Shown: one piece after another, positions 3,615 through 54,730 of the stretch | Numbering within the stretch: the stretch's first letter is position 1 | How the letters are laid out: the number at the start of each line of letters is the position of its first letter | Source of the DNA: Escherichia phage Dru_SM1 | DNA length: 60,633 bases | Sequence record: PP596835.1 | Direction: 5' to 3' (one strand) | Translations under genes and position numbers: made by a program | Notes under the pieces: model-generated | The model's database searches: none | Told to the model about the DNA's origin: nothing | Seen by the model: only the letters and a program-made list of their open reading frames with translations

Positions 3615-3710
3615 TTGCAACTTCCAAATTGATTGGTTTATATTAACGAACACGGGGCTGGGACGGCTCAGCTCCAAAAAACGTCACACGGGTGACAACG
3701 GAGATAAGAA

Positions 3711-4583: not shown

Positions 4584-4597
4584 GTTGACATCCCGAC

Positions 4598-4630
4598 GTC
4601 CCTGATGTTAAGTTTCAACACATCAGGGAC
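4598..4630 (+). other. stem-loop between scaffold and capsid genes (10-bp stem GTCCCTGATG / CATCAGGGAC), preceded by TTGACA at 4585-4590; no U-tract
   Basis: inverted repeat read directly from sequence; function not established. Confidence 0.5.
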
Positions 4631-4705
4631 ACGGGTTCCTAAACAGCCTTCCACGGGGAAAGGCTACCAACAGTAAACAAATCAATCCTTTTCCTGGAGA
4701 CAAGT

Positions 4706-22295: not shown

Positions 22296-23003
22296 ATGTC
22301 TGACATGACTCTTTTACCTACTAATCTCGGTGGCGACGGTTTCGGTGGTGAAGCTGGTGCGGCTGGTATCGGTGGCGCGATCGGTGGTTTGATTGGTTCC
22401 TGGATCGGTAACGGTTGGGGCAGCAATGGTGGTTGGGGTGGTCGCGGTAACTTCGCTGGTCCGGTGGAAGTGCAAGCTTCTGTTGACACCAACGCAATTC
22501 TGCAAGCTATCAACAACGGTACTCTTCAGACCATTCAGGGGCAGAACGGTACTAACCTGACTGTTGAGCGCTCCGCTGCTTCTACCTATAACGGCATAAC
22601 TCAGCAGAACACTCAGAACATGCTGGCTTCCGTTCAGGGTTTTGCTGGTCTGAACACGCAGATCCAGAGCGGCACAAGCCAAGTGCTCGCGGCTCTGTGT
22701 AACAACGAAGCAGCTAATATTACCCGTTCCTTCCAGGCGCAGCTAGAAGCTCAGAAGTGTTGCTGCGAAACCAACCTGAACATCGAGCGTCAAGCAGAAG
22801 CTACTCGTGCGCTCCTGCGCGATCAGCACGCACAAGCGCAAGCTGTTCTGATCTGTGACCTGAAGTCCCAGTTGCAGGAAGCTCGCTTTGCAAACTCTCA
22901 GTTGGCACAAACGGCTGGTCTTACTTGTAAGATCAATCAGGTTGAGCAGTTAGTTAACTTTAAACTGCCAACTCCTCCAACTCCTCCGACTGGCTGCTGC
23001 TAA
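22296..23003 (+). CDS. glycine-rich, Cys-cluster protein of unknown function
   Basis: 235 aa from ATG 22296 (GGAGA RBS); N-terminal Gly/Trp-rich region (GGDGFGGEAGAAGIGGAIGGLIGSWIGNGWGSNGGWGGRGN), internal KCCCE and C-terminal PTPPTPPTGCC. Confidence 0.5.
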   Translation: MSDMTLLPTNLGGDGFGGEAGAAGIGGAIGGLIGSWIGNGWGSNGGWGGRGNFAGPVEVQASVDTNAILQAINNGTLQTIQGQNGTNLTVERSAASTYNGITQQNTQNMLASVQGFAGLNTQIQSGTSQVLAALCNNEAANITRSFQAQLEAQKCCCETNLNIERQAEATRALLRDQHAQAQAVLICDLKSQLQEARFANSQLAQTAGLTCKINQVEQLVNFKLPTPPTPPTGCC

Positions 23004-23073
23004 TCGTTGAAGTGTGGTTAAACTAAAGCGCCTTTCGCTCCTCCGCTTGGGCGCTTTTAACAGAGGTACTATC

Positions 23074-23442
23074 ATGAGCCACATTAAAATTGCAACGATG
23101 GGAATGCCACGGGTCAAATTGCCTAAGGTTGCTTTACCTCGCATTAGCGTAGGTGAGCACCACCATGAACATGAGAAAGAGGAATATAAACATGCTCAAT
23201 CTTATGCTCGAGATCATGAACATATGGCAGCTATGTCAAATGTTCTTGACCGGATGGAAGAACCTCCGCATACGTGGGCGGCGTACCACGACAAGCCCGG
23301 CGGTATGATGTCCATTGTTGAAATGGAATACCGCGAATTAATGGAGTGTAAGAAAGAAGGCGACCGCGCAGGGATCATGAAAGAGTTAACTGATCTTGCC
23401 GCAGCTTGTACTTGCGCTCTTCAAAAAATGAAAGATATGTAA
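23074..23442 (+). CDS. hypothetical protein (weak MazG-like resemblance)
   Basis: 122 aa from ATG 23074; His/Glu-rich; segment VEMEYRELMECKKEGDRAGIMKELTDLAA loosely resembles MazG-type pyrophosphohydrolase helices. Confidence 0.3.
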   Translation: MSHIKIATMGMPRVKLPKVALPRISVGEHHHEHEKEEYKHAQSYARDHEHMAAMSNVLDRMEEPPHTWAAYHDKPGGMMSIVEMEYRELMECKKEGDRAGIMKELTDLAAACTCALQKMKDM

Positions 23443-23457
23443 GAATAGGAAGCCGAC

Positions 23458-23988
23458 ATGCAAAACGTAAACGCAGGAATGGGCGTAACCCAGTTCAACG
23501 GGATGAAACCGAAAAACTCCATCAACATGGGCGGTGTTGATTGGACGTTACGTCGGGACGCTACCGATTCAACTACCATGTTCCCACACCAGAAGGTGAG
23601 CTGGCTTAATGCTGGATGTGAACCTATGGGTGATGGAAGGGTTCATTACTGTTGGATTATGGGAGTGATACCGCCTACGCCGGGCACTATCGAACGACCC
23701 GTGAATGTGATGTATGTCGGCTTCCACCAGTTCAAGATTACAATTGCTCCAAACTCCATTAGTCAATCAGATCTTGATCGTATGCATGTTTACGTCAGCG
23801 ATGGCACAGACTTCGCAGGGGATTTTATTAGTAAGTTTCTTGGTATGCAACCAGAGCAGCCTGTAGAAGCACGCGAGCATATTAGCCCGTGGCCACCCAT
23901 GATTGATCAGGAAGTGCTGCAACCAAAGACCGCTCAAACGGTCCCTCAGAAACCGGAGCAGAAGGTGAAACCAAATGACGAAGAATGA
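23458..23988 (+). CDS. hypothetical protein
   Basis: 176-aa ORF with AGGAAG RBS. Confidence 0.45.
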   Translation: MQNVNAGMGVTQFNGMKPKNSINMGGVDWTLRRDATDSTTMFPHQKVSWLNAGCEPMGDGRVHYCWIMGVIPPTPGTIERPVNVMYVGFHQFKITIAPNSISQSDLDRMHVYVSDGTDFAGDFISKFLGMQPEQPVEAREHISPWPPMIDQEVLQPKTAQTVPQKPEQKVKPNDEE

Positions 23989-24259
23989 AGGTATTGATAA
24001 AGTCGTTGAAGGGCTTTCTATTCGTGCTCATGTTATAGCAGACGAAGGTCATGATCAACTTACAATTATGAAATCTGCATTCAGCGATTTTAAGTCTCTT
24101 GGAAACTTAAGCGGGTTAATGACTGTGGTGTCGACCGGAAAATTAACCCAGCAGCAAATCAGTCTAGCTCAGCGTATTGCTGTTAAAGTTATTGCGGTAC
24201 TTGGGATGATTGAAGCTGAAAAGCCCAGTTCCAAGCAGGATAACGAAAGCGACCTTTAA
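23975..24259 (+). CDS. hypothetical protein
   Basis: 94-aa ORF overlapping upstream gene. Confidence 0.4.
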   Translation: MTKNEGIDKVVEGLSIRAHVIADEGHDQLTIMKSAFSDFKSLGNLSGLMTVVSTGKLTQQQISLAQRIAVKVIAVLGMIEAEKPSSKQDNESDL

Positions 24260-24270
24260 GGAGGTCTACT

Positions 24271-24474
24271 ATGTGTGGTAATACTAACCGTTGCTGTCTA
24301 GGCAGTCCTGCAACACAAGCAGGTATACTTCAGGGGCAATTGGCTCAAGCAGCGTGTAATTGCAAAACTTTTCAACCAGTAGCGCCAACTCCTGTGTTTG
24401 TGAATGCTTTTGCACCGCCTGTTTTCAATACTTTTGGCGTATACCCATACGGTGCTTTCTTTCGTATATTCTAA
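24271..24474 (+). CDS. small Cys-rich protein
   Basis: 67 aa with AAGGAGG RBS; 5 Cys in the first 31 residues (CGNTNRCC ... CNC); followed by a terminator. Confidence 0.4.
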   Translation: MCGNTNRCCLGSPATQAGILQGQLAQAACNCKTFQPVAPTPVFVNAFAPPVFNTFGVYPYGAFFRIF

Positions 24475-24484
24475 GAAGAGAAAA

Positions 24485-24507
24485 GGGGCAAACGCCCCCT
24501 TTCTTTA
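24485..24507. terminator. bidirectional terminator between convergent rightward and leftward gene blocks
   Basis: hairpin GGGGC-AAAC-GCCCC with A-run upstream and T-rich downstream. Confidence 0.5.
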
Positions 24508-24786
24508 ACGCTTATGAAAAGCTGACAGGATTGCAAGTGTTACAGCACCCAATCCGACGACGGTAGCATAAGTGAGTTGGCGTTGAACTTTAACAAAGCC
24601 ATAATAGGTGCTAGGGATGTCTACAATCCCAAACGCCATGGCAAAGCTGGTCGCAAGTAGTGCTACAGCAAGGGCGCGTAATAACGCCCTGCTCATTGCT
24701 GTAAAGCCCTTCTCATTACTATCTCCGGTCATTATAACAACAATGATTAGAAATAGCGAAACGACAACTAATAGATATTCCATCAT
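24505..24786 (-). CDS. small membrane protein
   Basis: 93-aa ORF with two long hydrophobic segments. Confidence 0.45.
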   Translation of the reverse strand: MMEYLLVVVSLFLIIVVIMTGDSNEKGFTAMSRALLRALAVALLATSFAMAFGIVDIPSTYYGFVKVQRQLTYATVVGLGAVTLAILSAFHKR

Positions 24787-24989
24787 TTGCGTCTCCTGTA
24801 CATGTATTGATCATACGCAGTCGCAATAATAGTGACTGGCCAGCAAGCGAGTATACATAGAAGACTTACAATCTTCTCCCAAAGTTTCTTATGGGCTAGC
24901 GCATAATCATAGTTATTCCAACAAAAGAAATAAGTCATTGTTGCAATAACTGCACCAATTACAAAATACATAACCACATATTCATGCAT
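24783..24989 (-). CDS. small membrane protein
   Basis: 68-aa ORF with two hydrophobic segments and basic C-terminus (YRRRK). Confidence 0.45.
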   Translation of the reverse strand: MHEYVVMYFVIGAVIATMTYFFCWNNYDYALAHKKLWEKIVSLLCILACWPVTIIATAYDQYMYRRRK

Positions 24990-25176
24990 CGGTAAACTCC
25001 CAAATCAGATTATAATTATTTCCCGCTGGTACATAGCGCCCTGGACGTGGATCGAAGCTTTTCACTGAAAACTCCAGCGTTCCAGCGCTATATAGTTGCA
25101 CCTTTTGTCCGTCCCACGGTCCGCCGATCAATTTAAAAGTCTGTCGATAACCTTTTGCAGCTTTAGCCATGCTCAC
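24982..25176 (-). CDS. hypothetical protein
   Basis: 64-aa ORF, start/stop overlap with neighbours. Confidence 0.4.
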   Translation of the reverse strand: MSMAKAAKGYRQTFKLIGGPWDGQKVQLYSAGTLEFSVKSFDPRPGRYVPAGNNYNLIWEFTDA

Positions 25177-25212
25177 TCCTTAAATACCCGCGCGAACGCG
25201 GGTATTATTTTA

Positions 25213-25428
25213 TTACGCTTCCGGTGTTTCCGGTGTTTCCGGTGATGGTTCATCAGGAACAACAATAACGTCGGCTAAAACTTTCAACGCTTCTTGTTGC
25301 TCCGCTGTCATATTATTCCAGTAATAGACGTGAATGTAAACTACTGGTTTGTCACCATGTTGCCACGGTTCGCGACTTACTACATCCACACCTAAATCGC
25401 TTGCTACGCTCTTTTCTTTACCGGCCAT
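25213..25428 (-). CDS. hypothetical protein
   Basis: 71-aa ORF with acidic PETPETPEA tail. Confidence 0.4.
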   Translation of the reverse strand: MAGKEKSVASDLGVDVVSREPWQHGDKPVVYIHVYYWNNMTAEQQEALKVLADVIVVPDEPSPETPETPEA

Positions 25429-25460
25429 GCTAATGTACCCCTTTAAAGTTTTACACGCTG

Positions 25461-25754
25461 CTAGCCCCCAAAAGTACCCCTATGATCAAGGGTTCTAATG
25501 CGCTGCTCCAGCCAACGTGCGTTCTTTTCAAAATGTTTATTGGTACGCGCTGCTTTGCACGCATCAATAATACCTAACTCACATCCAAGCTGCGTTTGTC
25601 CCATCACGTAAGAATTGGTTAACATGCTGGATACAAGCTCTTCACATTGTAACTTAATAGGATGGTCTTGGCATAGTTTCTTTGCTGCATCTTTTAAATC
25701 CACAGCTTGGACACCAGGCGCTATCAGCAAAGTTACGAGTAATAAACGTTTCAT
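25461..25754 (-). CDS. secreted protein with signal peptide
   Basis: 97-aa ORF; N-terminal signal peptide (MKRLLLVTLLIAPGVQA-VD) and 4 Cys. Confidence 0.45.
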   Translation of the reverse strand: MKRLLLVTLLIAPGVQAVDLKDAAKKLCQDHPIKLQCEELVSSMLTNSYVMGQTQLGCELGIIDACKAARTNKHFEKNARWLEQRIRTLDHRGTFGG

Positions 25755-26038
25755 TATGCTTTCCCTTTACGACATAAGGCTTGAAGTTCCAGAAGCGCAT
25801 CAATGTCTTCCTGTGGAGTTACACCAACGTGAATTGGATATTTATCGCGGCATTCGTTGCCGACTTCAACAGTGTGGTTAATGTAGCCGTAAACACATCC
25901 ACCAATAACAGTGAAGATAAGCGCAACAATCATTGTAAGGTACTTACCTTGTTTGCGTTCTTCATTTTGTTTATTAAGCTGACGGTTAAGTTCCACCGCG
26001 TCAATTTTACCTTTATTGTAATCGTCTACTAAGCTCAT
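25754..26038 (-). CDS. membrane protein
   Basis: likely start ATG 26038 (AGAGGAGA RBS); one transmembrane segment (LTMIVALIFTVIGGCVYGYI). Confidence 0.45.
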   Translation of the reverse strand: MSLVDDYNKGKIDAVELNRQLNKQNEERKQGKYLTMIVALIFTVIGGCVYGYINHTVEVGNECRDKYPIHVGVTPQEDIDALLELQALCRKGKA

Positions 26039-26102
26039 TTTGTATCTCCTCTTGTTGTATGCATATATTAAAACAGACCCGCGAAGGGTCTGCAAGTAGA
26101 AT

Positions 26103-28088
26103 TTAGGCGTATCCCATGTCTTCGAGATACTTCTCTGCTTTAGCTATATAAGAATCATAATCTATGTCGTCCGGTATTTTATCCGGTAGCGTCATGATCG
26201 GGACACCTCCCGCGCTACCAGCTACACGGTTGCCCGAGTTAGCATAGATTATTTCAGGTGTTTCTTCATTAGTGCTTAAGTACCAGCGTACAACCTTACC
26301 CAAAAATTCGCCATTCCATACCGCGCCGCCTTTTACCGCACGTAGGATAATGAATTTTCTAATATCGTTGCAATTGCGTATAGTACGAGAAACAGGCGTA
26401 CCGTGGGCCAAACATTCACATACAGCTTCCATAATGATCTCACCAGTACAGTTCTTTTGAAGACCTGTCTTGGCAAACCAGCCTTTACGCTTGATTTCAA
26501 CATTTCCTTCCTCGTCAGGTTCTTTTACTGCAACATAGTTATTGACGTTAGCACTGTACAGCTTGTCATAGTAGTTGGATTCCATTTCAAAACCTGTTAC
26601 GGATTCCCACCACTTAATCATGTTATCAACGAAATCCTGCATATGGTCTGGATACTTAACCACAATACCATCCGTGTTAGCTGAGATTACTTTAACACCA
26701 TTCAACTCAAATGCCTCAATAAGCATCAACAGTGAAAGCTGTCCGGTTAATGTAACTTGTATCAATAATTGCGGAGCGTACAGTACGGACCACATAGACC
26801 CCAGCTTACCAAACGATCCGTTGATAACGATCTTCAGCGTGTTGGCTGTGTTCTTGTCCCCTGAGTGCTTAGCTGCAATACGACGATCTACAATACTCTT
26901 ATAAACACGAAGGAACGCTGGTCCCAACTGTTCTGGATATAAGCCCTGATTAAGAATGATTGAAGGATAATAAGACGTTACGTCAATGTCCCGCTTTTTG
27001 ATACCAGGCTCTTTACCGTGACCAGCACACTCTTCGGAGCTATGCAAACCACCAATACCCATACGGTAGACACCGTCCGCAATCTTGATCTCAAGACCTG
27101 TTAATGCAGGAGGTAAGCTGATACCACCGTTATCGCTAACAATAAAGCGACAGTCCCGAACAATATCCAAAACACTATTCATCAAAGGAGTTTGAAAACG
27201 AATAAAGTCTGGTATGTTGTATGCATACTTTGTTCCAGGATAAACTTGCGGACGCTGTGGGCGCACTCCCGTCAACGCTTGGATTTCGTGCTTAATTACG
27301 TCTTCTGCAATCTGTGCATCTGAGCGTGAACGCAGGTCCACACCGTATTCTTGCGACATAATTTCACGCAAGTGAATAGGCTCTTGCAATGCAATAAAAC
27401 ATTCTTCCGTCTGTACAAGGTCGTTAATACAGTACCAGCGCACAATAAGCATCTGGTCTTGCGTCAACATTGTATTAGGCTTGAACGGTAAATCCTGCAT
27501 ACGACGAGTATGTACACGTCCGCCGTATTGTTTCAAACCGCCGGACCCAGGCAGCACTTCCATGATATCGATGTGGTTAACGTTCTGCATACGCTTGAGA
27601 CGGTAACTCTTTAATACATCCGAAGGACGCCAGTCTTCAACGATTATTTTATCAGTTGCGTCTTTAAGCTGAGCATTAGAGCAGCCGTTAAGCGCAAGCG
27701 TAGCAATGGGCATATCGTACCCGTTACCGTTAAAGCTTACGATAAGGAAGTTTGTCATTACCCAGTTAAGTAATAAGCAATTCAAACTACAACCGTGATA
27801 CATCTCGAAGTAGACAACTTTCTTAGTTCGCACTCCGCGAAATGCAATTAAGAAATAATTTGGATAACATTCTATATCATATACAAGCGGTTCGCGGTTA
27901 ATCCATGCTTGAATAAGTTCGTCCTGTGTGTACAGGTTGTATTGGAAGTTCCGCGCTTCCTCAAGATTAGGCAAATAATCCGGGCGCTCCCAAGTGCGTT
28001 CCGGCGGTAAACGTTTAACCTTTTCTTTCTTTGCTTTTGGCTCAGGCGGTAAGTCCTGCCAAAAGAAACCAATAGCATCTGTCCGCAT
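26103..28088 (-). CDS. DNA polymerase, family B
   Basis: Exo I motif YDIECY, motif A DVTSYYPSII, motif B KIVINGSFGKLG, NTDG near C-terminus; start set to ATG 28088, which overlaps the upstream stop (TAATG). Confidence 0.8.
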   Translation of the reverse strand: MRTDAIGFFWQDLPPEPKAKKEKVKRLPPERTWERPDYLPNLEEARNFQYNLYTQDELIQAWINREPLVYDIECYPNYFLIAFRGVRTKKVVYFEMYHGCSLNCLLLNWVMTNFLIVSFNGNGYDMPIATLALNGCSNAQLKDATDKIIVEDWRPSDVLKSYRLKRMQNVNHIDIMEVLPGSGGLKQYGGRVHTRRMQDLPFKPNTMLTQDQMLIVRWYCINDLVQTEECFIALQEPIHLREIMSQEYGVDLRSRSDAQIAEDVIKHEIQALTGVRPQRPQVYPGTKYAYNIPDFIRFQTPLMNSVLDIVRDCRFIVSDNGGISLPPALTGLEIKIADGVYRMGIGGLHSSEECAGHGKEPGIKKRDIDVTSYYPSIILNQGLYPEQLGPAFLRVYKSIVDRRIAAKHSGDKNTANTLKIVINGSFGKLGSMWSVLYAPQLLIQVTLTGQLSLLMLIEAFELNGVKVISANTDGIVVKYPDHMQDFVDNMIKWWESVTGFEMESNYYDKLYSANVNNYVAVKEPDEEGNVEIKRKGWFAKTGLQKNCTGEIIMEAVCECLAHGTPVSRTIRNCNDIRKFIILRAVKGGAVWNGEFLGKVVRWYLSTNEETPEIIYANSGNRVAGSAGGVPIMTLPDKIPDDIDYDSYIAKAEKYLEDMGYA

Positions 28089-29041
28089 TAAACACGTTCT
28101 CCAATTAAAACACCGCGAAGATTTTCCCCAAAGAATGCGCAAGGTTGCGGATACAAACTAAAGTCCGCAGTCTTAACCACATTTTCAAGCAATAGCAGGA
28201 TATCAATATTGTACACTCCCGTTATTGTGCGGTCTTGTAATACGAAGCTCGCACCTTCTGCATCATCGTAATGAGTACGCGCTAGACCGTTTTCAATATA
28301 TACGCGAGGACGATCTTCTGCAAAAGGTTTAATTTTATGCAAACCCTCAAAAAGACCGGGATCAACAGGATGTGCATTGCATTGAACATTTAAAATACGA
28401 CGTATATCCGGCCACTCCGCATCAATAAGCTGTGTTCGCAACCAGCGACCTTCTGGATAATGAAATGTTACATTGTTCTTGCTAACCTGAATATGTGTCG
28501 GGTTAGCTTTAATGCGCAGTATTTCTTTAATAGCAACAGACGGTATTATGCAGTCAATAGGGAATTGATTACCAAACCAATATTCCGCAATGGTGACGTT
28601 ATTTGTAGCAAACAGGCTACCGTTATTAATCAGAATACCGCAAGCCCACGGGCGGGATGCATCTGAGCCTACAAACGGAGCAACGGACTTCACACCATGA
28701 ACGAGGCGAGCCCCATCTATTTCGTATAAATCACCTTCAGGGAATACGTGAGGCGTTTCCTTGTCAATGCAGCGTATAGCAACACGAAACGGTCCGGACT
28801 TAATATTAAGTTTACCGTTAGCCATCATTGTTAACTGTACGGTTTCGTCACAGTTTGAAATAGCTTTAATCATAGGCCCAGCTTCGGGCTTGCAATCAAT
28901 ATCCAGCTCAATAGGGCTACCCAGTGCAATAACACCGTTAAAGCCCTGTACCTGTCCATCACGGATAAGAAAGCTGGTAAGCCCTTCTACCAGTTCCTTT
29001 TTAGCGACGGACCCTTGAACAAATTTAAGAGCGTCTAACAT
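28088..29041 (-). CDS. hypothetical protein (possible polymerase accessory / sliding clamp; unverified)
   Basis: 317-aa ORF translationally coupled to the DNA polymerase gene; function guessed from position only. Confidence 0.3.
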   Translation of the reverse strand: MLDALKFVQGSVAKKELVEGLTSFLIRDGQVQGFNGVIALGSPIELDIDCKPEAGPMIKAISNCDETVQLTMMANGKLNIKSGPFRVAIRCIDKETPHVFPEGDLYEIDGARLVHGVKSVAPFVGSDASRPWACGILINNGSLFATNNVTIAEYWFGNQFPIDCIIPSVAIKEILRIKANPTHIQVSKNNVTFHYPEGRWLRTQLIDAEWPDIRRILNVQCNAHPVDPGLFEGLHKIKPFAEDRPRVYIENGLARTHYDDAEGASFVLQDRTITGVYNIDILLLLENVVKTADFSLYPQPCAFFGENLRGVLIGERV

Positions 29042-29268
29042 TAGCGATCCTCGATTGCTCTAATTGTGGTTAAATCTAATTCGCAGGTTGGAGGGTATCC
29101 ATAAAGTCCCATTTGTTTTCCTTGTGCATTAAACCATGTACCTGACGGATCCTGCCACTGCTTAGGTGTCTTGTGGAGAAATACTACTCTGTTTTCACCG
29201 TAATAATTAATTCTTACTCCTGTGTGAGTATATTTACGTTTACCTTTTGGTCTTCTTAAGTTGGCCAT
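29041..29268 (-). CDS. hypothetical protein
   Basis: 75-aa basic ORF overlapping neighbours. Confidence 0.4.
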   Translation of the reverse strand: MANLRRPKGKRKYTHTGVRINYYGENRVVFLHKTPKQWQDPSGTWFNAQGKQMGLYGYPPTCELDLTTIRAIEDR

Positions 29269-30188
29269 CAGAACAACTCCATTACACGATCACGGAATGT
29301 GCCGTCATGGGTGGCGTTAATGTTTGCAGCAATTACACCATACGCCCATAAGTTGAAGGCAGCACGTGATTCATAGATTGTTGATAAACGTTCGTAAGTG
29401 AAACCGTTTTGCTCAAGGTATTTAAGGACAGCATCCTGTTCAATTTCAGTTAATGTTGAAACATGCTTACCAAAATGATGGCGGTCCGGTGACTTATCTG
29501 ATACGCGCATTGGTCCCCACGGAGGAGTAACCACACTTCCAAACGCTGCCGCTTGAATCCAGGAGGATGAGTCACAGCTATACCACGGATAACGCTCCAT
29601 AATGGTTGTTGACGTAATACCAAACGCATGAAGTTTAATCTTAGCACGCCCGCTACCGTCGCAAATATATTTGTCCCACATGCGGTCAAGCCAAGTTTTA
29701 AGCGTGTCCGTTGAACGCCCTACCATGCCCCCGATGGTGATGTATTCGTAGTTCTTCATGTAGTATTCAAGATAGCGGAAGTCCTCCCCGAAGTGGAAGC
29801 AGGGTAACGGTTTAGCACCGCGTGCTTCCATTTCAAGCTGGTTACGGTAGGTTTGCAACGGATCACCGATACCATCGAGCACCGACGCCATTACTGCACC
29901 ATCTTCTACGCGAAGGATGTCTTTGTTGCGCTTAATGTATTCGCAGTATTCAACAATATCAATGTGAGCACCCAAAGAGTGCGCGGAGAATGCGCCGGAG
30001 TCGAGAAACACTTTAGCCCCGTCCGCACGCATCTGATCAACATACTTTTGACGTCCAACGTAGTGGTATGATTCCAAAATATGGGGCAGATTGCGCGTGA
30101 TATTTTTCTCATGCTCGGATAGCTTTTCGTAACGCTGCTGTCCAGGCATATAACCGTTCGTGTAAACTGCTGCCATAAAAACGTTCAT
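29268..30188 (-). CDS. dpdA: DpdA-like DNA transglycosylase (tRNA-guanine transglycosylase homologue)
   Basis: 306-aa ORF; TGT-like region (KVFLDSGAFSAHSLG), ~300-aa size, and position next to folE/queD/queC/queE. Confidence 0.6.
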   Translation of the reverse strand: MNVFMAAVYTNGYMPGQQRYEKLSEHEKNITRNLPHILESYHYVGRQKYVDQMRADGAKVFLDSGAFSAHSLGAHIDIVEYCEYIKRNKDILRVEDGAVMASVLDGIGDPLQTYRNQLEMEARGAKPLPCFHFGEDFRYLEYYMKNYEYITIGGMVGRSTDTLKTWLDRMWDKYICDGSGRAKIKLHAFGITSTTIMERYPWYSCDSSSWIQAAAFGSVVTPPWGPMRVSDKSPDRHHFGKHVSTLTEIEQDAVLKYLEQNGFTYERLSTIYESRAAFNLWAYGVIAANINATHDGTFRDRVMELF

Positions 30189-30391
30189 TTTTGGAATGGT
30201 CCTCCAAACTGATCAATTAATTCTAAAGTACGCCACGCTTCATTAAATGCTTCGTCCGCTCGATGTTTAGCGTCAATAATCTGCTGCTTTAAAACATCTG
30301 TAGGCGCATCATTCTGTATTGCAGAGCAAGCATCCGCAGTACCTGCTTTAAGCTGGTAGAATGCTGTCTCTAAGATTAGTTGTCTTGACAT
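30185..30391 (-). CDS. hypothetical protein
   Basis: 68 aa from ATG 30391 with GGAGGAAAT RBS. Confidence 0.4.
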   Translation of the reverse strand: MSRQLILETAFYQLKAGTADACSAIQNDAPTDVLKQQIIDAKHRADEAFNEAWRTLELIDQFGGPFQK

Positions 30392-30462
30392 ATTTCCTCC
30401 AATGACTAAAAAGCCCATACCAGTATTATGACCGATATGGGCTTGATCTGTAAAGCTATCTA

Positions 30463-31110
30463 TTATTTACAAGCTTCGAGGAACTCCCGGCGCCAATATG
30501 CACCCATATCGGTTCCCCCCAGCCCCGCGCGTGCGGTGCATCCGCGGAATGCTTTGGTAATAGTAGAGCTGCCGCATACCTGCTTAACACCGCGCGACTC
30601 CATGCACATATGCTTGGCGTCAATATAAACACATACAGCTTTCGGGTTTAAATGCTCCTGAATAGCGTCAGCAATCTGGTTAGTTAGACGCTCTTGCACT
30701 TGCAAGCGACGGCTAAAAGCATCAACCACGCGAGACAGTTTACTGAGCCCCACGATGCGACCGTTAGGAACATACCCCACGACAGCGCGACCGATAATAG
30801 GGGCCATATGGTGTTCACAATGACTGTAAACAGGAATATCACGAACAATGACCATTTCATTGGTGTTTTCCGCCCCATCCTCAAAGGTTTTAAACAGACC
30901 AGCAATATCTACATCGTAACCGCTAAACCATGTAGCATAAGCTTTAGCGACACGGTCTGGAGTCTCTGCTAATCCTGGACGTAATTCAATGCAATCTTCA
31001 ATCTGAGTTAGTAAAGTATGCACCGCGCGAGCAATACGGAATTGAGTACCTTCATTATCAATAGTAAATTTTGGCATGGTTTGCAGTTTCCTTGTTGTTA
31101 ATGTGGTCAT
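30463..31110 (-). CDS. folE: GTP cyclohydrolase I
   Basis: 215-aa ORF; catalytic region CEHHMAPI and [23 protein letters not shown] closely resemble bacterial FolE; start overlaps queD stop. Confidence 0.85.
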
Positions 31111-31111
31111 A

Positions 31112-31633
31112 TTACAGGCTATAGTTTACGTGACATTTCGAAGTTTCTTCGATGGTGCATTCTACAAGTTGAACACCATGTTCGTCAAGCAGTTGTGGCC
31201 CAATTACTTCAACCATGTACGCAGCTAAGTTTTCAGCGGTCGGGTTGAATGGAAGTGACACCAGCGAACCTAAATAATCCATTTGATCCCGATGCGACAT
31301 ATTGTCCATAGTTGTCGTATCTACAAATTTATTTAAGCTCTTAATGAGAGGATCATGCTCCCAGTGCAGGAACTTATGGTCCCAGTTATCTTCCAGCCAC
31401 TGACACAGCGTAGTTTTGACCACACTAAAATCGATCACGCGTCCCACGTCGTCCAGCCCACCTTTTTCGCGAAGTGTGCCACAGCGAATAACTTTAACGT
31501 CCGTACGACCTTTCGGTGCAACCTTAAAGTAAAACTTATAGTTGTGACCGTGAATGTGGCGACATTTGCTTTCATGACCCACAACACGATGTCCGGCGCA
31601 AATCTCATGTGAACGAATTACTGTATAGCTCAT
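31112..31633 (-). CDS. queD: 6-carboxytetrahydropterin synthase
   Basis: 173-aa ORF with QueD/PTPS zinc motifs (CAGHRVVGH ... CRHIHGHNY). Confidence 0.8.
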
Positions 31634-31887
31634 TTTAATACCTCTTTAGATTGTTCAATTTCTAACGCACGCTGTGCAGACGCAATAATGTCTTTCAAAT
31701 CTTCTACAAGATTCTTATGACCGCGTTCGCCAGGCTGCAACGCCTTTTTAATCAAATGTTGTAAAGCTGGGTTAGTTGTCTTCCAAGCTTCCAAGACATC
31801 ATACACGTCCACGATGCATTTTACAACATTCCCGTTTTGATCTTTACCATAAATAACTTTCTGGTATTTATTCAAATTATCTTTCAT
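31630..31887 (-). CDS. hypothetical protein
   Basis: ORF 31630-31932; likely start ATG 31887 abutting the upstream gene. Confidence 0.35.
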   Translation of the reverse strand: MKDNLNKYQKVIYGKDQNGNVVKCIVDVYDVLEAWKTTNPALQHLIKKALQPGERGHKNLVEDLKDIIASAQRALEIEQSKEVLK

Positions 31888-31889
31888 TT

Positions 31890-32369
31890 TTACGCTCTCG
31901 CTGTACGTGAATGAACTTCGTAAACAACCCAAAGGATAGCGGACGCTGTGAATTTACTTAAGCTCATTGCTACCATAGATCCCGGATTAACAATACCTAT
32001 AATACTTAAGAACACAATGGAGTCAATTGGTACAGCTACCAAAGAGCTGATAAATACTCGTTGATGGAAAGGCTTCTTGGTGACCGTGTATACTACATAA
32101 TCCGCAAACTCACTAAGCGCAAAAGACGCAACGGATGCAACTACAACCGCAGGATCTCCGAACACCCAGCTAAGAATGCAACCAACAATCATTGCAGGGA
32201 TAACACCTTTGCCAGCGTTACGCTGTGCGTAATCACGAAGAACAAAGATAATACCTACAAAGAAAGCCATCATAGGGACTACGCCAAGTGGCGTATTAAG
32301 CATCGGAAGGTAGGAAAAGCCCAGGTTTACGAATGTAATTGCAGCCAGATAAGCAACGATAAATTTCAT
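31890..32369 (-). CDS. multi-pass membrane protein (possible queuosine-precursor transporter)
   Basis: 159-aa ORF with ~5 hydrophobic segments inside the que cluster; transporter role inferred from context only. Confidence 0.35.
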   Translation of the reverse strand: MKFIVAYLAAITFVNLGFSYLPMLNTPLGVVPMMAFFVGIIFVLRDYAQRNAGKGVIPAMIVGCILSWVFGDPAVVVASVASFALSEFADYVVYTVTKKPFHQRVFISSLVAVPIDSIVFLSIIGIVNPGSMVAMSLSKFTASAILWVVYEVHSRTARA

Positions 32370-32489
32370 ACTTTTGTTCTCCAGTTTTAACAGCGCTATT
32401 CGCTGGTTGTTGGGTTTAAAAGCTTTAGTAGTATAGTTGGGTTACCGCACCCTAAACAATGCGCTAGCGGTGCGGTTTTCGCGGTAAGA

Positions 32490-33197
32490 TCAAGCTTTGC
32501 TAATAAATTCGCTGTACCCTTTAGCACGCAGTTTGCACGCTGGACATTCCCCGCAACCGTATCCCCAGTCATGCAGAGTACGACGGACGCCATTATAGCA
32601 CGTATGGGACTGCTCAATTACTGTGGTTAAGAAACCAACCTTATCCGCCAGCTCAAACGTTTCTGCTTTATTTAAACGCATAAGCGGAGTAACAAAATGG
32701 ATATCTGTTTCATATCCAACGTTTAAGGTAGCTTCAAGCAAATCTACAAACTGCTGACGGCAATCCGGATAACCGCTATAGTCCGTTTCACAGACGCCCG
32801 TAACCACATATCGGGCTCCAACCTTCTGCGCGTAGGCGTGCGCGGTAGTCAGGAAAAGGGCGTTACGGTTTGGCACAAAGCTTGCTGGAAGGTTGTTGTG
32901 CTGTTCGTGATGTTCGTTAACATCACCTTCGTTTCCGATTAAAGCACTATTGCCGATCTGTTTCAATGCAGGTAATTCAAAGACAACAAACGGAACATTG
33001 TGCTCTTTACAAATTTGATTAGCACAAGCCAGCTCAATGTTATGACGTTGACCGTATGCAAAACCAATAGCGTAGACTTTATCGTAGTTATTCAGTGCAA
33101 GACCTAGACAAGTCACGCTGTCCTGGCCGCCAGACAGGACGACAACGGCGGAGTTATGATTTTTTACAGGGAATACCAGTTTATCTAATTTATTCAT
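32490..33197 (-). CDS. queC: 7-cyano-7-deazaguanine (preQ0) synthase
   Basis: 235-aa ORF; PP-loop VVLSGGQDS; C-terminal zinc Cys cluster (CYNG...GCGECPAC); stand-alone QueC size, no extra domain. Confidence 0.85.
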   Translation of the reverse strand: MNKLDKLVFPVKNHNSAVVVLSGGQDSVTCLGLALNNYDKVYAIGFAYGQRHNIELACANQICKEHNVPFVVFELPALKQIGNSALIGNEGDVNEHHEQHNNLPASFVPNRNALFLTTAHAYAQKVGARYVVTGVCETDYSGYPDCRQQFVDLLEATLNVGYETDIHFVTPLMRLNKAETFELADKVGFLTTVIEQSHTCYNGVRRTLHDWGYGCGECPACKLRAKGYSEFISKA

Positions 33198-33198
33198 T

Positions 33199-33387
33199 TT
33201 AGAAACCTTTAAGGCTAATATTAAGGTTAACGACTACTTGTTCAACTACAGCTTCAGATGTTACCTGACGCTGGTGTATCTCAAGCTCCGAATGTATTTT
33301 CTTGGATGCAGCGCGACAAATAGCGTCATTCAACTCGTCTTGTAAACGTTGAATTTTCTGCATAAGGATTACAGTTTCTTCATTCAT
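33199..33387 (-). CDS. hypothetical protein
   Basis: 62-aa ORF between queC and queE. Confidence 0.35.
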   Translation of the reverse strand: MNEETVILMQKIQRLQDELNDAICRAASKKIHSELEIHQRQVTSEAVVEQVVVNLNISLKGF

Positions 33388-33592
33388 TTACTTCACCTTT
33401 AATATCGCAAGGGTTAATTGTTACGTTAGACATTACAATTGGATGATTGCGCGCTCCAATTGTACTAACGTGATTAATATCCAATTCTACATGCACGCCC
33501 TGCATAGTAGCGTGAGCAATTGAAGAATTAAGTTTTTCTACCAGCTCAGTGATCATTTCCTGATGCTGTTTCGCTTCTTCCAAAGTGACCAT
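33380..33592 (-). CDS. hypothetical protein
   Basis: 70-aa ORF overlapping neighbours. Confidence 0.35.
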   Translation of the reverse strand: MVTLEEAKQHQEMITELVEKLNSSIAHATMQGVHVELDINHVSTIGARNHPIVMSNVTINPCDIKGEVNE

Positions 33593-34299
33593 TATTCCAC
33601 CCCGATATATTTGTGAACCTGAAGCTGCAACGTGTAACCGTGTTTCATACAGCTTTGGACAACGGCTTGGATATTACTGTGGTTAAGGTCTTCATCCTGC
33701 TCGTCCATTGGCTGTAAATATATCTTACCCTTGAAACCCTTCGGAGGTCTAGCGATAAATGGCGTAGCTTGATGATCTAATGCTTGAAGAGGTAAACCGT
33801 CTTCCACGTTTACACAGCACGCTTTAAGTACATATTTAAATGCATTAGCGCGGTACAGCACAGAAGGATGAATCTTTGAAGTCTTGGGACTACATACAAT
33901 CACAGGTAACTGGGAAAAGTTCTTAGGTAAAGGCATAGACCCATTAGTTTCAATTTGCACCAAATAGCCCCGCGATAACAGTTGTTCAATGAAGGGGTTA
34001 ATTTGCTGACGGAACGGTTCACCCCCAGTGATAACCACAAGTGAGGTGCTATTGCCCGATTCCAGCTTACGGCTTTCGATTAAACGCATAATATCAACGA
34101 TATGATAAAGGCTACGACCAACAGTATAATCTGTATCACAGCCAGGACATTGCAGGTTACACCCAGCAAGACGCACAAATACAGCAGGTTGACCGCAGAA
34201 TGGACCTTCACCCTGAATGGTAGAGAATACCGAATGCACGTCTAAATACATATCGTTTTCTTTAGAACGGGACTCGGGAGCTTGTTGATTAATATTCAT
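33592..34299 (-). CDS. queE: 7-carboxy-7-deazaguanine synthase (radical SAM)
   Basis: 235-aa ORF; QueE-type motifs (TIQGEGPFCGQPAVFVRLAGCNLQCPGCDT); AGAGGA RBS. Confidence 0.8.
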   Translation of the reverse strand: MNINQQAPESRSKENDMYLDVHSVFSTIQGEGPFCGQPAVFVRLAGCNLQCPGCDTDYTVGRSLYHIVDIMRLIESRKLESGNSTSLVVITGGEPFRQQINPFIEQLLSRGYLVQIETNGSMPLPKNFSQLPVIVCSPKTSKIHPSVLYRANAFKYVLKACCVNVEDGLPLQALDHQATPFIARPPKGFKGKIYLQPMDEQDEDLNHSNIQAVVQSCMKHGYTLQLQVHKYIGVE

Positions 34300-34311: not shown

Positions 34312-34343
34312 AGTGAAAAAGAAAGCGCCTCATTGGGCGCTTT
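34312..34343 (-). terminator. rho-independent terminator (leftward)
   Basis: hairpin AAAGCGCC-TCATTG-GGCGCTTT followed on the minus strand by a T-run (rc of GTGAAAAAG); lies between the Ala/Lys-rich gene and queE. Confidence 0.5.
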
Positions 34344-34368
34344 CATTATAACGTGATATGTTTTGATA

Positions 34369-35169
34369 TTACAAGCCGTTCAGGGCTTCCGGTACTGGTA
34401 CAGGTACGCGACCAGTCACACCATTAAATTTCTTCCAGCGTGCATACTGGGTTTTAACGGTATCTTCGTTCAGACCATGTCGACCAGCCAGGTTCAGAAC
34501 ATAAGAGATCGGAGCAGGCTGACCCAGCGTAGCGCTAATGTGGTCCATCAGAGCCCAGGCACGACCGCAGGAAGTTTCCGGTTGCGGACGACGAACACCG
34601 TTCTGTTCCGGCATACGATTAGCTTCTTTTTCTTTCTCGCGGAGCTCTTTAGCGCGCGCTTTTTCCGCTTCTTTTTCTGCCTGTTTTGCAGCACGGATCT
34701 TGTCTTTGAAGCCTTTAATAGTAGCTTCCAGACCATCCACCAGGCCCTGAGCAGAAGTTACAGCACCGGACAGGTCTTCACCTTTAGACTTCTTAACAAC
34801 AGCTTTCAGCTCTTTCAGAGCTTCTTTAATGGTCTTCAGGTTTGCAGATCCCTGAGTTTCTGCTTCCGTGATTTGTTCAACAGTGCTTTCGTCGGTGACG
34901 GTAGCCAAAGAGTTTTTCAGAATTTCAGCAGCGTTAGCAATCGCATTAAATTTGTTTTCCGCTTCAGCGCGGATTTCAGCTTGTTTCTTTTCAGCGGCAG
35001 CTTTTTTCTCTGCTTCTTTTTTCTCTTTTGCTACGCGTGCAGCTTCAGCAGCAGCGGCTTTCTTAGCTTCTGCGTCATTCACAGTAGCTTCTTTCTTTGC
35101 AGGTTTAGCAGATTTTGCAGCGGCAGCGGCGGCTGCAGCAGCAGCTTTTTTGTCTTCAATGTTGCTCAT
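34369..35169 (-). CDS. Ala/Lys-rich protein (histone H1-like low-complexity region; possible DNA-binding protein)
   Basis: 266 aa from ATG 35169; N-terminal ~200 aa are Ala/Lys/Glu repeats (KKAAAAAAAAAAKSAKPAKKEA..., AKEKKEAEKKAAAEKK), C-terminal ~70 aa non-repetitive. Confidence 0.5.
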   Translation of the reverse strand: MSNIEDKKAAAAAAAAAAKSAKPAKKEATVNDAEAKKAAAAEAARVAKEKKEAEKKAAAEKKQAEIRAEAENKFNAIANAAEILKNSLATVTDESTVEQITEAETQGSANLKTIKEALKELKAVVKKSKGEDLSGAVTSAQGLVDGLEATIKGFKDKIRAAKQAEKEAEKARAKELREKEKEANRMPEQNGVRRPQPETSCGRAWALMDHISATLGQPAPISYVLNLAGRHGLNEDTVKTQYARWKKFNGVTGRVPVPVPEALNGL

Positions 35170-35295
35170 TCTCTTCACTCCGAATTGTTATGGGTTCGTT
35201 TGTTACCAACGGGTTAAATGTACCAAAGGATTTTGTGACACGCAACCCCTTATCTGAACATTTTTAAAAATATTTTTGATCAAGCTTAGAACTTA

Positions 35296-37827: not shown

Positions 37828-38736
37828 TTAATCTTTCCCGTAATAATTAGCTACTTGATAGTTTTGGCAACCAACTTTCTGACCTTGAGTATCTACTGTA
37901 CTGGAATGGAAATTGCAATACCATGTTCCATCTTCTTTAGGCTCAAGGAATTGGCATGTGCGACAGTTTACTTCCGGCATAGTTTTACGCCAGCATAGTG
38001 AGGAGTGATCGCACCATTTACATTCGAAGAAAGTGGAATCTTTAAATGCGCGGTCCGGAATATCTGTAGCAATAGCAATCTGCACACCACGATCAATATA
38101 CATGTCCGCGGTAACAGGATCAAACGGAATAATTTCTGCGTAAACTTCATCGTCATTCTTGTTTACAGCAAGATATAACGCTGCGCCAAGACCTAGTTTT
38201 CGCATGTACACGTTCATCTGTACATAGTGCTCAGGTTTGGCTTCTTTAACACCTTTAGCTTTCAGCTTTTTAAAAGACTTATCGTTATGCGTCTTCATTT
38301 CGGTGAGCACAGGCATCCCAGGCTGCACGTCCGGACAACCTATAACCACACCATCGCAGGAACCGCCAAAGTGTCCGCCAGCTTCGCTGATACGGAACTG
38401 GTGTCCATTTTCGTCCTGCTGATAGACCTGCATACCTGCTGCAAGAAGCATAGCAATGAAACGCGCTTCTTCCAGATGTCCGCGGTTAAACAGTCGAAGC
38501 TGGCGCCCGTCAAACTCTTTGCGTGTAGCCCAGCGATATCCATAGAAAAGCTTGCGTGCGCATTGCTGCCCAATAAGGGAAGCGCCTAAGTGACTGCGGT
38601 TACCGCTTTCAGGGCGATAAGCGTCTTCAATTGTGGGAATGACTACGCCAAGATACTTACGGTAAGTCCCACCCTGATCTTTTTGCACACCGTCATTGAT
38701 CGCTTGAAGTGTTTTTTCTGCAATATAAATAGCCAT
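37828..38736 (-). CDS. PD-(D/E)XK nuclease, Cas4/RecB-like with Cys cluster
   Basis: 302-aa ORF; one N-terminal Cys and a C-terminal cluster (ECKWCDHSSLC) flank a D...E.K core (DGVVIG...LTEMK). Confidence 0.5.
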   Translation of the reverse strand: MAIYIAEKTLQAINDGVQKDQGGTYRKYLGVVIPTIEDAYRPESGNRSHLGASLIGQQCARKLFYGYRWATRKEFDGRQLRLFNRGHLEEARFIAMLLAAGMQVYQQDENGHQFRISEAGGHFGGSCDGVVIGCPDVQPGMPVLTEMKTHNDKSFKKLKAKGVKEAKPEHYVQMNVYMRKLGLGAALYLAVNKNDDEVYAEIIPFDPVTADMYIDRGVQIAIATDIPDRAFKDSTFFECKWCDHSSLCWRKTMPEVNCRTCQFLEPKEDGTWYCNFHSSTVDTQGQKVGCQNYQVANYYGKD

Positions 38737-38801
38737 TGGAATACCTTAGAAAAATAAGCCGTCGAAAGACGGCTTATGGACACTACAGAGGGAGGGTTAT
38801 C

Positions 38802-39689
38802 TTACTGCTGCCACGGCGGGACTGCTGCTTGTGCCGGATGCGGTTCAGCTTGCTGCTGCGGCTGAGCTTGCTGCTGAGGTGCTGCTGCCTGGCCAGGCTG
38901 TGCTACCTGCTGCGCCCACGGCTGCTGAGCTGCTTCCGGTGCTACTGGCTGTTGTACTGGAGCTTGCTGCACTGGCTGCTGTGGTGCTGCGTTTTGAGCA
39001 GGATTATCCCACGGCTGCGGTGCGGCATTCTGCCACGGTTGTGCTGCTGCGCCCTGCTGTGGTGCTGGTTGCTGCTGCACAGGCTGCTGAACTGGCTGCT
39101 GTTGCTGCACCGGAGCTTGCTGCTGTACAGGCGCTTGCTGTTGCTGAGCAAACGGGTTAGCTGCTGGTTGCTGCGGTGCTGCGCCCGGGAAAGCTGGCTG
39201 CTGAGCTGGCGCACCTGCACCGAACGGGTTAGCTACTGCTGCTTGAGTACCCATTGCTGGAGCACCTGCTTCTTTTTCTGCATACTTAACCGGATCGTTG
39301 ATGTTAGCATAACCGTTAGGCTCGTTGCTGTCTTCATAACCTTCCTGAGAACGAACTTTCAGACGCAGGTTCAGCGGAATGTTATGCAGTTGAGCAGGAG
39401 TATCCCAGCGAATTACGCCAACCGCATGGGAAAGCGCGCCCAGTTGCTCGTAAGCGATACGCACGGTATCTTCGTTATCGTTGATAACGTTATAACGAGC
39501 GAAGATTTTACGGCCTTTAGCAAAACCATCAATGATGCTAAACGTTACCTGGATTGCCATACCGCCATTTTTGGTCGGTTTGAATTCAGATGCTTCAATT
39601 ACTGCTTTATACCAACCTTTCGGCAATGCGCCGTAAGAAGGTGCTTGATAGCTGCTCGCGTCAAAGTGGAAATTAGTTGGCATAGTCAT
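38802..39689 (-). CDS. putative ssDNA-binding protein with Gln/Pro/Ala-rich C-terminal tail
   Basis: 295-aa ORF; N-terminal ~130-aa globular region then low-complexity Q/P/A repeats; sits next to Sak4-like ATPase. Confidence 0.4.
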   Translation of the reverse strand: MTMPTNFHFDASSYQAPSYGALPKGWYKAVIEASEFKPTKNGGMAIQVTFSIIDGFAKGRKIFARYNVINDNEDTVRIAYEQLGALSHAVGVIRWDTPAQLHNIPLNLRLKVRSQEGYEDSNEPNGYANINDPVKYAEKEAGAPAMGTQAAVANPFGAGAPAQQPAFPGAAPQQPAANPFAQQQQAPVQQQAPVQQQQPVQQPVQQQPAPQQGAAAQPWQNAAPQPWDNPAQNAAPQQPVQQAPVQQPVAPEAAQQPWAQQVAQPGQAAAPQQQAQPQQQAEPHPAQAAVPPWQQ

Positions 39690-40417
39690 TAGTTGATACC
39701 TTTCATTTTGTTGATAACAGAACCTAAGTGTGGGACTTCAACCGCATCTAAACGTCCCGAACGATCCTTAGCGATTGTATTAAAGTCCGGTTGAGTTTGC
39801 AAGTAACGATACGAGTTACCTTGCTGATCCTTATTTACATTCAGACGAAACACTTCGTCGAAGAAATAAGGGAGCATTTGCCCCAATTTGGACCCAGGCA
39901 TAGATGGAGCATACGCGGTAACACCGGAGACTTCATCTTTGTCTTTGCCCATTTTAGCAGACATATAAACATGTTTGCCAGGAATATCGCGAAATTTACG
40001 GATTAGATCTTGCATCTTTTCAAGCAAAGTACCATAAGCTTGACGAGGATCTTTTGTTCCTTTTTTCGCATTGTTTAAACATTGTTCAGCAATTTCGCTC
40101 AAGCTGTCAAGCGCAATAGAATCGAAATACTGCTGGTTAGCTGGAGTTACACACCACTGATAAGCAGCTTCAACGTCCTCCAGACATTTAACTTCGATAA
40201 CAGGAATGTCATAAACGATCGGCAATCCCATGTTACCATAAACGCGATTAAGGTTTTCCGCTGCAATAGACAACAGACCGGACTCTGCGCTGATCAAAAT
40301 TGGTTTAGGTAGTGTGGCTACAAGGCTGGTTTTACCCATACCCGCTTCACCGTAAACCAGAATTTTAACGCCTGTGTCTTGCACTACTTGTGAAGACATT
40401 TTAATTTCAATGGCCAT
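39689..40417 (-). CDS. RecA-like ATPase (Sak4-like recombination protein)
   Basis: 242-aa ORF; Walker A LVYGEAGMGKTS; size and neighbourhood typical of Sak4-type proteins. Confidence 0.55.
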   Translation of the reverse strand: MAIEIKMSSQVVQDTGVKILVYGEAGMGKTSLVATLPKPILISAESGLLSIAAENLNRVYGNMGLPIVYDIPVIEVKCLEDVEAAYQWCVTPANQQYFDSIALDSLSEIAEQCLNNAKKGTKDPRQAYGTLLEKMQDLIRKFRDIPGKHVYMSAKMGKDKDEVSGVTAYAPSMPGSKLGQMLPYFFDEVFRLNVNKDQQGNSYRYLQTQPDFNTIAKDRSGRLDAVEVPHLGSVINKMKGIN

Positions 40418-49125: not shown

Positions 49126-49650
49126 TTATACACCCAATTTGTTACAACCATGGTTCTTGTGAAAATTGTAATCGGTTAATGCTTTACTTACAGCCATTTG
49201 TGCATCTTCAAAAGTATCGTATACTCCAAGATATTTTGAAGTCCCGTCAACGCCTATACGAGCTTGCCATTTATTAGTAGCTTTGTGAAATGTAACTCCA
49301 TTTACTCCAGAGGTATTATTGCGTTTCTTACTTTGATTTCGTCCATTTTCTTTGTGAGTAACAAGACGCAAGTTTTCAATGCGGTCGTCGTAACGAACAT
49401 GATTAATATGGTCAATCTCATACCCTTCGGGAATGGGTCCATTATGCATTTCCCATACTATACGTGAACGACGATATAGTTTACCGTTAAGGGTAATACG
49501 AACATATCCTTTATCTGTAAGCGTACCCGCAACGCAACCTTCTTTCGCTCTTGCGCCCATATCTTTCTTCCAATACAACACTCCTTCATTATATTGGAAT
49601 ATCACCGCCCATTGTGGGAAAGCTTTAATTTCAGCGGGAAACAGTTCCAT
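49126..49650 (-). CDS. HNH homing endonuclease
   Basis: 174-aa ORF; HNH motif IDHINHVRYDDRIENLRL; first 16 residues resemble the primase N-terminus. Confidence 0.7.
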   Translation of the reverse strand: MELFPAEIKAFPQWAVIFQYNEGVLYWKKDMGARAKEGCVAGTLTDKGYVRITLNGKLYRRSRIVWEMHNGPIPEGYEIDHINHVRYDDRIENLRLVTHKENGRNQSKKRNNTSGVNGVTFHKATNKWQARIGVDGTSKYLGVYDTFEDAQMAVSKALTDYNFHKNHGCNKLGV

Positions 49651-54239: not shown

Positions 54240-54730
54240 CGCACACAGCAGCACCACAGCGAGCTAAAGCTCAAAGGTAATGGTAATGCATTACCAACAC
54301 ACAACGAGCACGCTGTACCCCACAAAGCGGCGCTAATTTCAACACTCACAGGCCGTACGAGTTAACGTACAGCCTGCTCTGCTATATGCACGCCCCATAC
54401 ACAGCCAGCTCACGATATACATTAATATAATAACGAATGAAATAGATTCGTCTGGAAGAATAACAGATCTTGCAGTCACAGACCGGTCCAATGAGCCGAC
54501 TCATAGACCCCACCTAGGATCATCAGGGTACTAATAATCACCCGAGGGCGCCTTATCCATCCTGATAGTAAGTCCACGCCTAAATCTCACCTGTCACATA
54601 GCCTATCCACCTATATGCGAAGGCAGACCCGACCCACCTTAGAATCTACCCTATCAACATATTCATCATTGAAAAATCTGTGGGTTATTGCTAAAATATA
54701 GATGACAAAAAATTGATCGAAGGTATTGAA

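Follow-up and report, generated by a model that had tools for sequence, protein, structure and literature searches.

Gene content of the cluster

This report concerns a gene cluster in Escherichia phage Dru_SM1 (record PP596835.1; the whole 60,633-nt stretch analysed is called the window) that is predicted to replace guanine in phage DNA by the 7-deazaguanine base preQ0 (7-cyano-7-deazaguanine). In the open reading frame (ORF) listing, minus-strand genes run uninterrupted from 34299 down to 28088, and six of them, all intact, have an assigned function: folE, queD, queC, queE, dpdA and yhhQ (Table 1). An initial annotation, made from the letters of the sequence, had placed dpdA, folE, queD, queC, queE and a membrane protein here on the minus strand. 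ORF listing and profile searches find each of these genes where it had been placed, and the motifs quoted for FolE, QueD, QueC and QueE can be read in the translations. The same annotation spoke of five contiguous leftward genes; leftward they are, but six small ORFs (62–85 aa) are interleaved among the pathway genes, which are therefore not contiguous. The module does lie inside the interval 28088–34299 that had been proposed for it, but does not begin at its lower end, since 28088–29041 encodes the replication sliding clamp, a gene that the 12-gene cluster map of Kot et al. for the related phage CAjan does not include (PMC7544227).

Table 1. Features of the deazaguanine cluster and its borders in window coordinates, from the upstream to the downstream end of the minus strand.
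Feature	Position	Strand	Evidence
Terminator-like hairpin (34344–34321) with overlapping promoter-like site (34374–34345)	34321–34374	-	consensus scan only
queE, radical-SAM 7-carboxy-7-deazaguanine synthase, 235 aa	33592–34299	-	phrog_2076 2e-68; CNLQCPGC motif
Small ORF, 70 aa, conserved in Seuratvirus clusters	33380–33592	-	coding sequence at same place in KurtStettler and CAjan; 93–97% aa identity
Small ORF, 62 aa	33199–33387	-	annotated coding sequence in KurtStettler and CAjan; 89–97% aa identity
queC, stand-alone 7-cyano-7-deazaguanine (preQ0) synthase, 235 aa	32490–33197	-	PF06508 7e-75; SGGQDS motif and C-terminal Cys cluster
yhhQ-like, short VUT/DUF165 membrane protein, putative preQ0 importer, 159 aa	31890–32369	-	Vut_1 2e-5 and TIGR00697 1e-4, both sub-threshold
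Small ORF, 85 aa, C-terminal domain of a 182–189 aa cluster protein	31630–31887	-	alignments to KurtStettler and CAjan; phrog_23361 matched only at 94–181 of 181
queD, 6-carboxytetrahydropterin synthase, 173 aa	31112–31633	-	PF01242 2e-21; phrog_2389 4e-54; CRHIHGH motif
folE, GTP cyclohydrolase I, 215 aa	30463–31110	-	PF01227 6e-63; TIGR00063 191.6 bits, above cut-off; CEHHMAPI motif
Small ORF, 77 aa	30185–30418	-	phrog_20065 2e-40; annotated coding sequence in KurtStettler and CAjan
dpdA, DNA guanine transglycosylase inserting preQ0, 306 aa	29268–30188	-	phrog_887 8e-96; 100% identity to CAjan DpdA; fold search
Small ORF, 75 aa, final gene in the CAjan cluster map	29041–29268	-	phrog_38388 8e-58; 75/75 aa identical to CAjan and KurtStettler
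Sliding-clamp gene, outside the modification module	28088–29041	-	phrog_947 1e-81; weak DnaN matches; DNA polymerase beta subunit in relatives

Profile matches cover the complete preQ0 pathway. The searches recommended earlier for QueC, QueD, QueE and FolE all return matches, and for QueC the score of 243 bits against TIGR00364 lies above the cut-off of 150. The cluster contains a single PTPS-family protein.

DpdA and its family

The dpdA product is identical over 306/306 residues to the experimentally validated DpdA of CAjan. It matches phrog_887, a family named ‘queuine tRNA-ribosyltransferase’, and a fold search with its AlphaFold model returned DpdA, arcTGT, TGT, QTRT2 and Cap10 as the top five hits; its best structural match is the DNA preQ0 insertase DpdA and not a tRNA enzyme. 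We therefore place it in the TGT/DpdA family on the strength of the phrog_887 match, the identity to the CAjan enzyme and the fold search. An alignment of 38 homologues (68–75% identity) reveals that the nine residues with a catalytic or pocket role in CAjan DpdA, according to the proposal of Kot et al., are all invariant (Asp63, Ser64, Phe67, Asp105, His132, Gly153, Gly154, Phe189 and Asp206; PMC7544227), as befits a member of the TGT superfamily with its catalytic aspartates. A sequence search with DpdA against PDB chains gave no match.

In an older reading, seen in database annotations, the genes serve queuosine modification of tRNA in host or phage translation. DpdA shares the fold of tRNA-guanine transglycosylases, and many GenBank relatives and PHROGs still carry names such as ‘queuosine tRNA-ribosyltransferase’ and ‘queuosine biosynthesis’. 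We nevertheless give this reading hardly any credence: the identical CAjan enzyme is needed for dPreQ0 in DNA, no tRNA gene is encoded in the 60,633-nt window, the fold search points first to the DNA enzyme, and at 306 aa, against 577 aa for arcTGT, the phage protein lacks the C-terminal tRNA-binding domains of that enzyme.

The predicted modification

Two features of the gene set point to dPreQ0 as the product: QueC is a stand-alone protein of 235 aa without a GATase domain, as the initial annotation had read it, and no QueF-like reductase was found. The sole signal for a QueF gene (PF14489, 3.9e-5, 24.2 bits against a cut-off of 27.3) falls inside FolE, is attributed to the shared fold, and was rejected. 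More broadly, Pfam scans of the cluster and of the examined ORFs elsewhere (those of 34369–60461 as concatenated translations, and selected ORFs of 22314–26095 and of the structural module separately) detected no GATase, QueF, ArcS, DUF3109 (DpdM) or formyltransferase domain, within the sensitivity of Pfam and with large tail proteins and ORFs below 90 aa in 22314–26095 left aside. No preQ0-processing enzyme (Gat-QueC, ArcS, QueF or DpdL/M/N) is thus found in the scanned ORFs. What the rest of the window does match in Pfam are a helicase, AAA_24, DNA ligase, dUTPase, a PDDEXK nuclease, primase, two HNH endonucleases, a SLOG-family protein, DUF669, RNase H, a holin and tail proteins. A tblastn search of the cluster with the Gat part of a Nonagvirus-like Gat-QueC gave nothing significant (one stray match, E 0.66). 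The 62- and 70-aa ORFs upstream of queC were considered as remnants of a Gat domain and rejected, as they have no similarity to that Gat part.

Experiments on CAjan supply the chemistry. Liquid chromatography–mass spectrometry (LC-MS/MS) of its DNA found dPreQ0 at 70,628 per 10^6 nt, about 32% of G, and dADG, dG+, dPreQ1 and dQ each below 6 per 10^6 nt; wild-type DNA is left uncut by HaeIII and EcoRV, and a dpdA knockout loses all modification, becomes fully digestible and regains restriction sensitivity (PMC6884629). Nanopore sequencing places the modification at GA and GGC, and deletion of folE, queC or dpdA, but not of yhhQ, abolishes the signal (PMC7544227). In vivo, Seuratvirus phages of the BASEL collection resist type I and type II restriction-modification but remain susceptible to type III (PMC8594841).

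With the two strands of the window taken together, G lies in GA or GGC at 7,665 sites, which is 28.5% of all G (63,208 per 10^6 nt). For CAjan the figure is 28.1% (62,862 per 10^6 nt), to be compared with the LC-MS value above. With an identical DpdA, the dPreQ0 load and pattern expected for this phage are those of CAjan.

A different final base would result if the module made preQ0 and another enzyme, host QueF or an unrecognised phage tailoring enzyme, converted it to dADG, dG+ or dPreQ1. E. coli has QueF, which makes the host enzyme a possible converter, and six ORFs of the cluster are without assigned function. Some phage DpdAs accept several deazaguanines (PMC10516641). We regard such a conversion as very improbable, because CAjan, with the identical DpdA and the same ORF set, contains these bases and dQ only at the trace levels given above, and because the domain scans returned no candidate for the conversion among the ORFs covered. 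The dPreQ0-type modification that had been predicted from gene content is thus supported by a phage that carries dPreQ0 only.

Proposed mechanism and weight of the evidence

In sum, we read the cluster as the dPreQ0 DNA-hypermodification module of Seuratvirus, and put the probability of this reading at about 93%. During infection, FolE, QueD, QueE and QueC would convert GTP in four steps into the free base preQ0. DpdA, a TGT-superfamily TIM-barrel transglycosylase, would act after replication, flip out G in GA and GGC and swap in preQ0, with Asp206 as the predicted nucleophile and Asp63 as the predicted general base. About 28–32% of G is expected as dPreQ0, which would block or impair many restriction enzymes of types I and II. 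As a salvage route, exogenous preQ0 is probably taken up by the YhhQ-like membrane protein, which is dispensable in the laboratory. The chemistry, target motifs and protection in this scheme are taken from the CAjan and BASEL phage experiments; the present genome contributes gene content and order, family assignments, identity to validated orthologues and the lack of detectable downstream tailoring enzymes.

Several observations weigh against this reading. DpdA has no Pfam match at E ≤ 0.01, including to TGT (PF01702); with the NCBIfam DpdA equivalog NF041059, of which it is not a member, it reaches 16.9 bits where the cut-off is 200. Confidence in its AlphaFold model is only moderate (mean pLDDT 65.7, with 70–90 in the barrel core at residues 50–200) and is poor in the C-terminal 90 residues. 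QueE, with several QueE models at about 1e-27, and QueD do not reach the cut-offs of their NCBIfam equivalogs. Identity to the CAjan counterparts is only 74% for FolE and 78% for QueD, and the N-terminal half of one cluster ORF is lost in this phage. Finally, that virion DNA of this phage would carry dPreQ0 at GA and GGC is inferred from the identical DpdA and the LC-MS and nanopore results on CAjan. The placement of the dpdA product in the TGT/DpdA family, on which the initial annotation had staked its reading, thus fails with Pfam and NCBIfam and stands with phrog_887, the CAjan identity and the fold search; the phage protein works like DpdA, yet lies outside the bacterial equivalog.

The gene set is real and intact, but the system was already described in 2019–2021 for near-identical phages. 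The interpretation in the initial annotation is supported, and what it could not know is that all of it had been reported: the restriction resistance and nanopore signals that it predicted are published for CAjan (PMC6884629, PMC7544227). The scientific addition is little, as system, chemistry, motifs, genetics and restriction effect are all published and the key enzyme is identical. In practice, DNA of this phage would be expected to resist some restriction enzymes and to shift the nanopore signal systematically at GA and GGC, which bears on cloning, restriction typing and base-calling.

The YhhQ-like membrane protein

The initial annotation had suggested that the membrane protein could import a precursor, which matches the published view. 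Its own profile scores are low (25.3 bits against a cut-off of 27.2 for Vut_1, PF02592, and 22.2 against 50.95 for TIGR00697, the queuosine precursor transporter), with part of the Vut_1 model covered by a short protein of 159 aa. PF02592 is found on most of 108 homologues, several of which their sources name YhhQ, VUT family or queuosine precursor transporter, and the CAjan and KurtStettler records annotate the protein as a preQ0 transporter. By these sequence comparisons it is a probable member of the YhhQ/VUT family.

Codon differences from CAjan number 31 in yhhQ and 32 in dpdA, all of them synonymous, with no non-synonymous change in either gene; the YhhQ-like protein is identical over 159/159 residues. 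This pattern indicates strong purifying selection on both genes. For yhhQ this is so although its deletion in the laboratory leaves the modification of CAjan unchanged.

The truncated ORF and possible accessory factors

The ORF between queD and yhhQ encodes 85 aa in this phage; the KurtStettler version has 182 aa and the CAjan version 189 aa. Alignment shows that 291 bp have been lost in frame between two AATAAA microhomologies (junction at about 31865). Codons 8–104, 97 codons in all, are missing; the start codon remains, as does the C-terminal domain, which is highly conserved. The short form occurs in none of the 35 GenBank relatives matching across the junction, and an assembly artefact is possible. 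A 90-aa form, 91% identical, is present in a public metagenome assembly, and proteins of 60–150 aa made up of the C-terminal domain alone are common and have no Pfam annotation. The N-terminal part is the part that varies among relatives, and the lost domain has no Pfam match in either KurtStettler or CAjan.

Could this loss have weakened the module, so that level or pattern of modification would differ from CAjan? That the deletion is seen in 0/35 relatives speaks for it, as does the presence of the same C-terminal domain in gene g253 of a Nonagvirus-like cluster (49% identity over 82 aa), pointing to a possible link with the pathway. Against this, the deletion is in frame and keeps start codon and conserved domain, the domain is widespread on its own (the 90-aa form being one case), the missing part is variable among relatives, and the six assigned genes are intact. 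We consider a weakened module scarcely probable at all.

It is doubtful, though less so than any of the alternatives above, that one or more of the small cluster ORFs acts as an accessory factor, so far undescribed, in the deazaguanylation of phage DNA. Candidates may be the 75-aa ORF beside dpdA, which relative to CAjan shows only synonymous changes, and the C-terminal domain at 31630–31887. An obligate partnership of the 75-aa product with DpdA was rejected: the ORF is absent from the Nonagvirus-like cluster and therefore not universal. If such a factor existed, it could help DpdA as DpdB helps bacterial DpdA, or tune the site or amount of modification, and the natural N-terminal deletion would be a ready-made test allele.

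We note two further features of the small ORFs and of the cluster border. The N-terminal helices of the 62- and 70-aa ORFs resemble each other weakly (38% over 26 aa, pairwise E 9e-5), and the two ORFs may be tandem paralogues that have diverged; the CAjan record labels the counterpart of the 70-aa ORF ‘radical SAM domain-containing’. The promoter and terminator scan was near background save for one strong hairpin upstream of queE, in a 70-bp gap, with a 9-bp stem containing six G-C pairs and followed by a T run. Together with the overlapping promoter-like site it may be a candidate start or boundary of the cluster transcription unit.

The source genome

The phage DNA of 60.6 kb has a small terminase gene at base 12 and lysis genes at its far end. 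Relatedness searches covered three parts (bases 1–25000, 28088–34299 and 35634–60633), and the best matches of all three are Seuratvirus genomes, at 92–96% identity over 76–100% of the query. In the flanks, complete Seuratvirus genomes match collinearly from terminase to lysis, at 92–96% over 76–87% of each 25-kb query, and the window therefore is, by sequence comparison, essentially the whole genome of a Seuratvirus (Queuovirinae), an E. coli siphophage. The cluster region matches about 50 phage records, among them KurtStettler (96.5% nucleotide identity over 100%) and CAjan (92% over 97% of the query). Outside the cluster, KurtStettler is more divergent (91.6% over 87% for the first 25 kb), and no record in the searched collection is identical to this genome. 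The phage is thus a further genome-level Seuratvirus variant and, because its nearest relatives reach only the flank values above, may be a distinct species of the genus.

Two HNH_3 homing-endonuclease genes, at 49126–49650 on the minus strand (Pfam 5e-20) and 54713–55204 on the plus strand (4e-16), are likely mobile insertions that add to the differences from related genomes; one of them directly follows the primase gene. Upstream of the cluster, the true gene at 34363–35217 is the minus-strand ORF 34369–35178 (269 aa, rich in Ala, Lys and Glu, with a run of nine alanines and without Pfam match); an ORF on its antisense strand is longer, at 284 aa, but spurious. A spurious antisense ORF likewise lies at 38736–39692 on the plus strand, opposite the DUF669 gene at 38802–39689 on the minus strand. 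Some palindromic sites are rarer in the window than base composition predicts (GGCC 56 against 146 expected, GAATTC 5 against 18, GGATCC 4 against 11), and the counts of GATATC (18 EcoRV sites), CATATG and ATTTAAAT are close to expectation. Restriction-site avoidance appears to coexist with base modification.

Comparison with known systems

The CAjan cluster (NC_028776, 28,621–34,560; PMC6884629, PMC7544227) has the six assigned genes in the same order. DpdA, the YhhQ-like protein and the 75-aa product are identical in the two phages, QueE agrees at 234/235 residues (99.6%) and QueC at 230/240 (96%). As here, CAjan has a stand-alone QueC, no tailoring enzyme and the same predicted load at GA and GGC. 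It differs in an additional 107-aa ORF (AJT60524) that is missing in this phage.

KurtStettler (Bas22, MZ501091), a BASEL Seuratvirus, comes closest to this region: it has all 12 ORFs in the same order at 97–100% protein identity, including FolE at 99% and QueD at 98%, and its record names DpdA, the dPreQ0 synthase QueC and the preQ0 transporter YhhQ. QueC of this phage is identical to those of CAjan and KurtStettler at 230–232 of 240 residues and differs in the last ones. KurtStettler keeps the full 182-aa ORF (bas22_0042) that carries the 291-bp deletion here. Since the folE–queD part is far from CAjan and near KurtStettler, while the DpdA and YhhQ proteins are identical to both, this part is a mosaic within the genus, and 30463–31633 resembles a mosaic produced by recombination within the cluster.

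The DpdA of the bacterial Dpd system (PDB 7ui4; NF041059) has 413 aa against 306 aa here, with a structure-based identity of 17%, and the scanned window ORFs contain no other dpd-type gene.

In Nonagvirus, of the phage 9g type, the product is dG+ (2'-deoxyarchaeosine) and not dPreQ0, and the Gat-QueC fusion of that system is absent from this phage. A Nonagvirus-like contig (L005) encodes such a fusion of 471 aa at 3340–4755, and its cluster is without yhhQ and the 75-aa ORF. The QueC part of the fusion is 29% identical to QueC here, while DpdA (68%), FolE (80%), QueD (70%) and QueE (65%) are much closer; the clamp is 52% identical. From this contrast in sequence identity, the difference between the two genera seems to lie in an exchange of the entire queC gene together with gain of yhhQ, and not in mere loss of the Gat domain.

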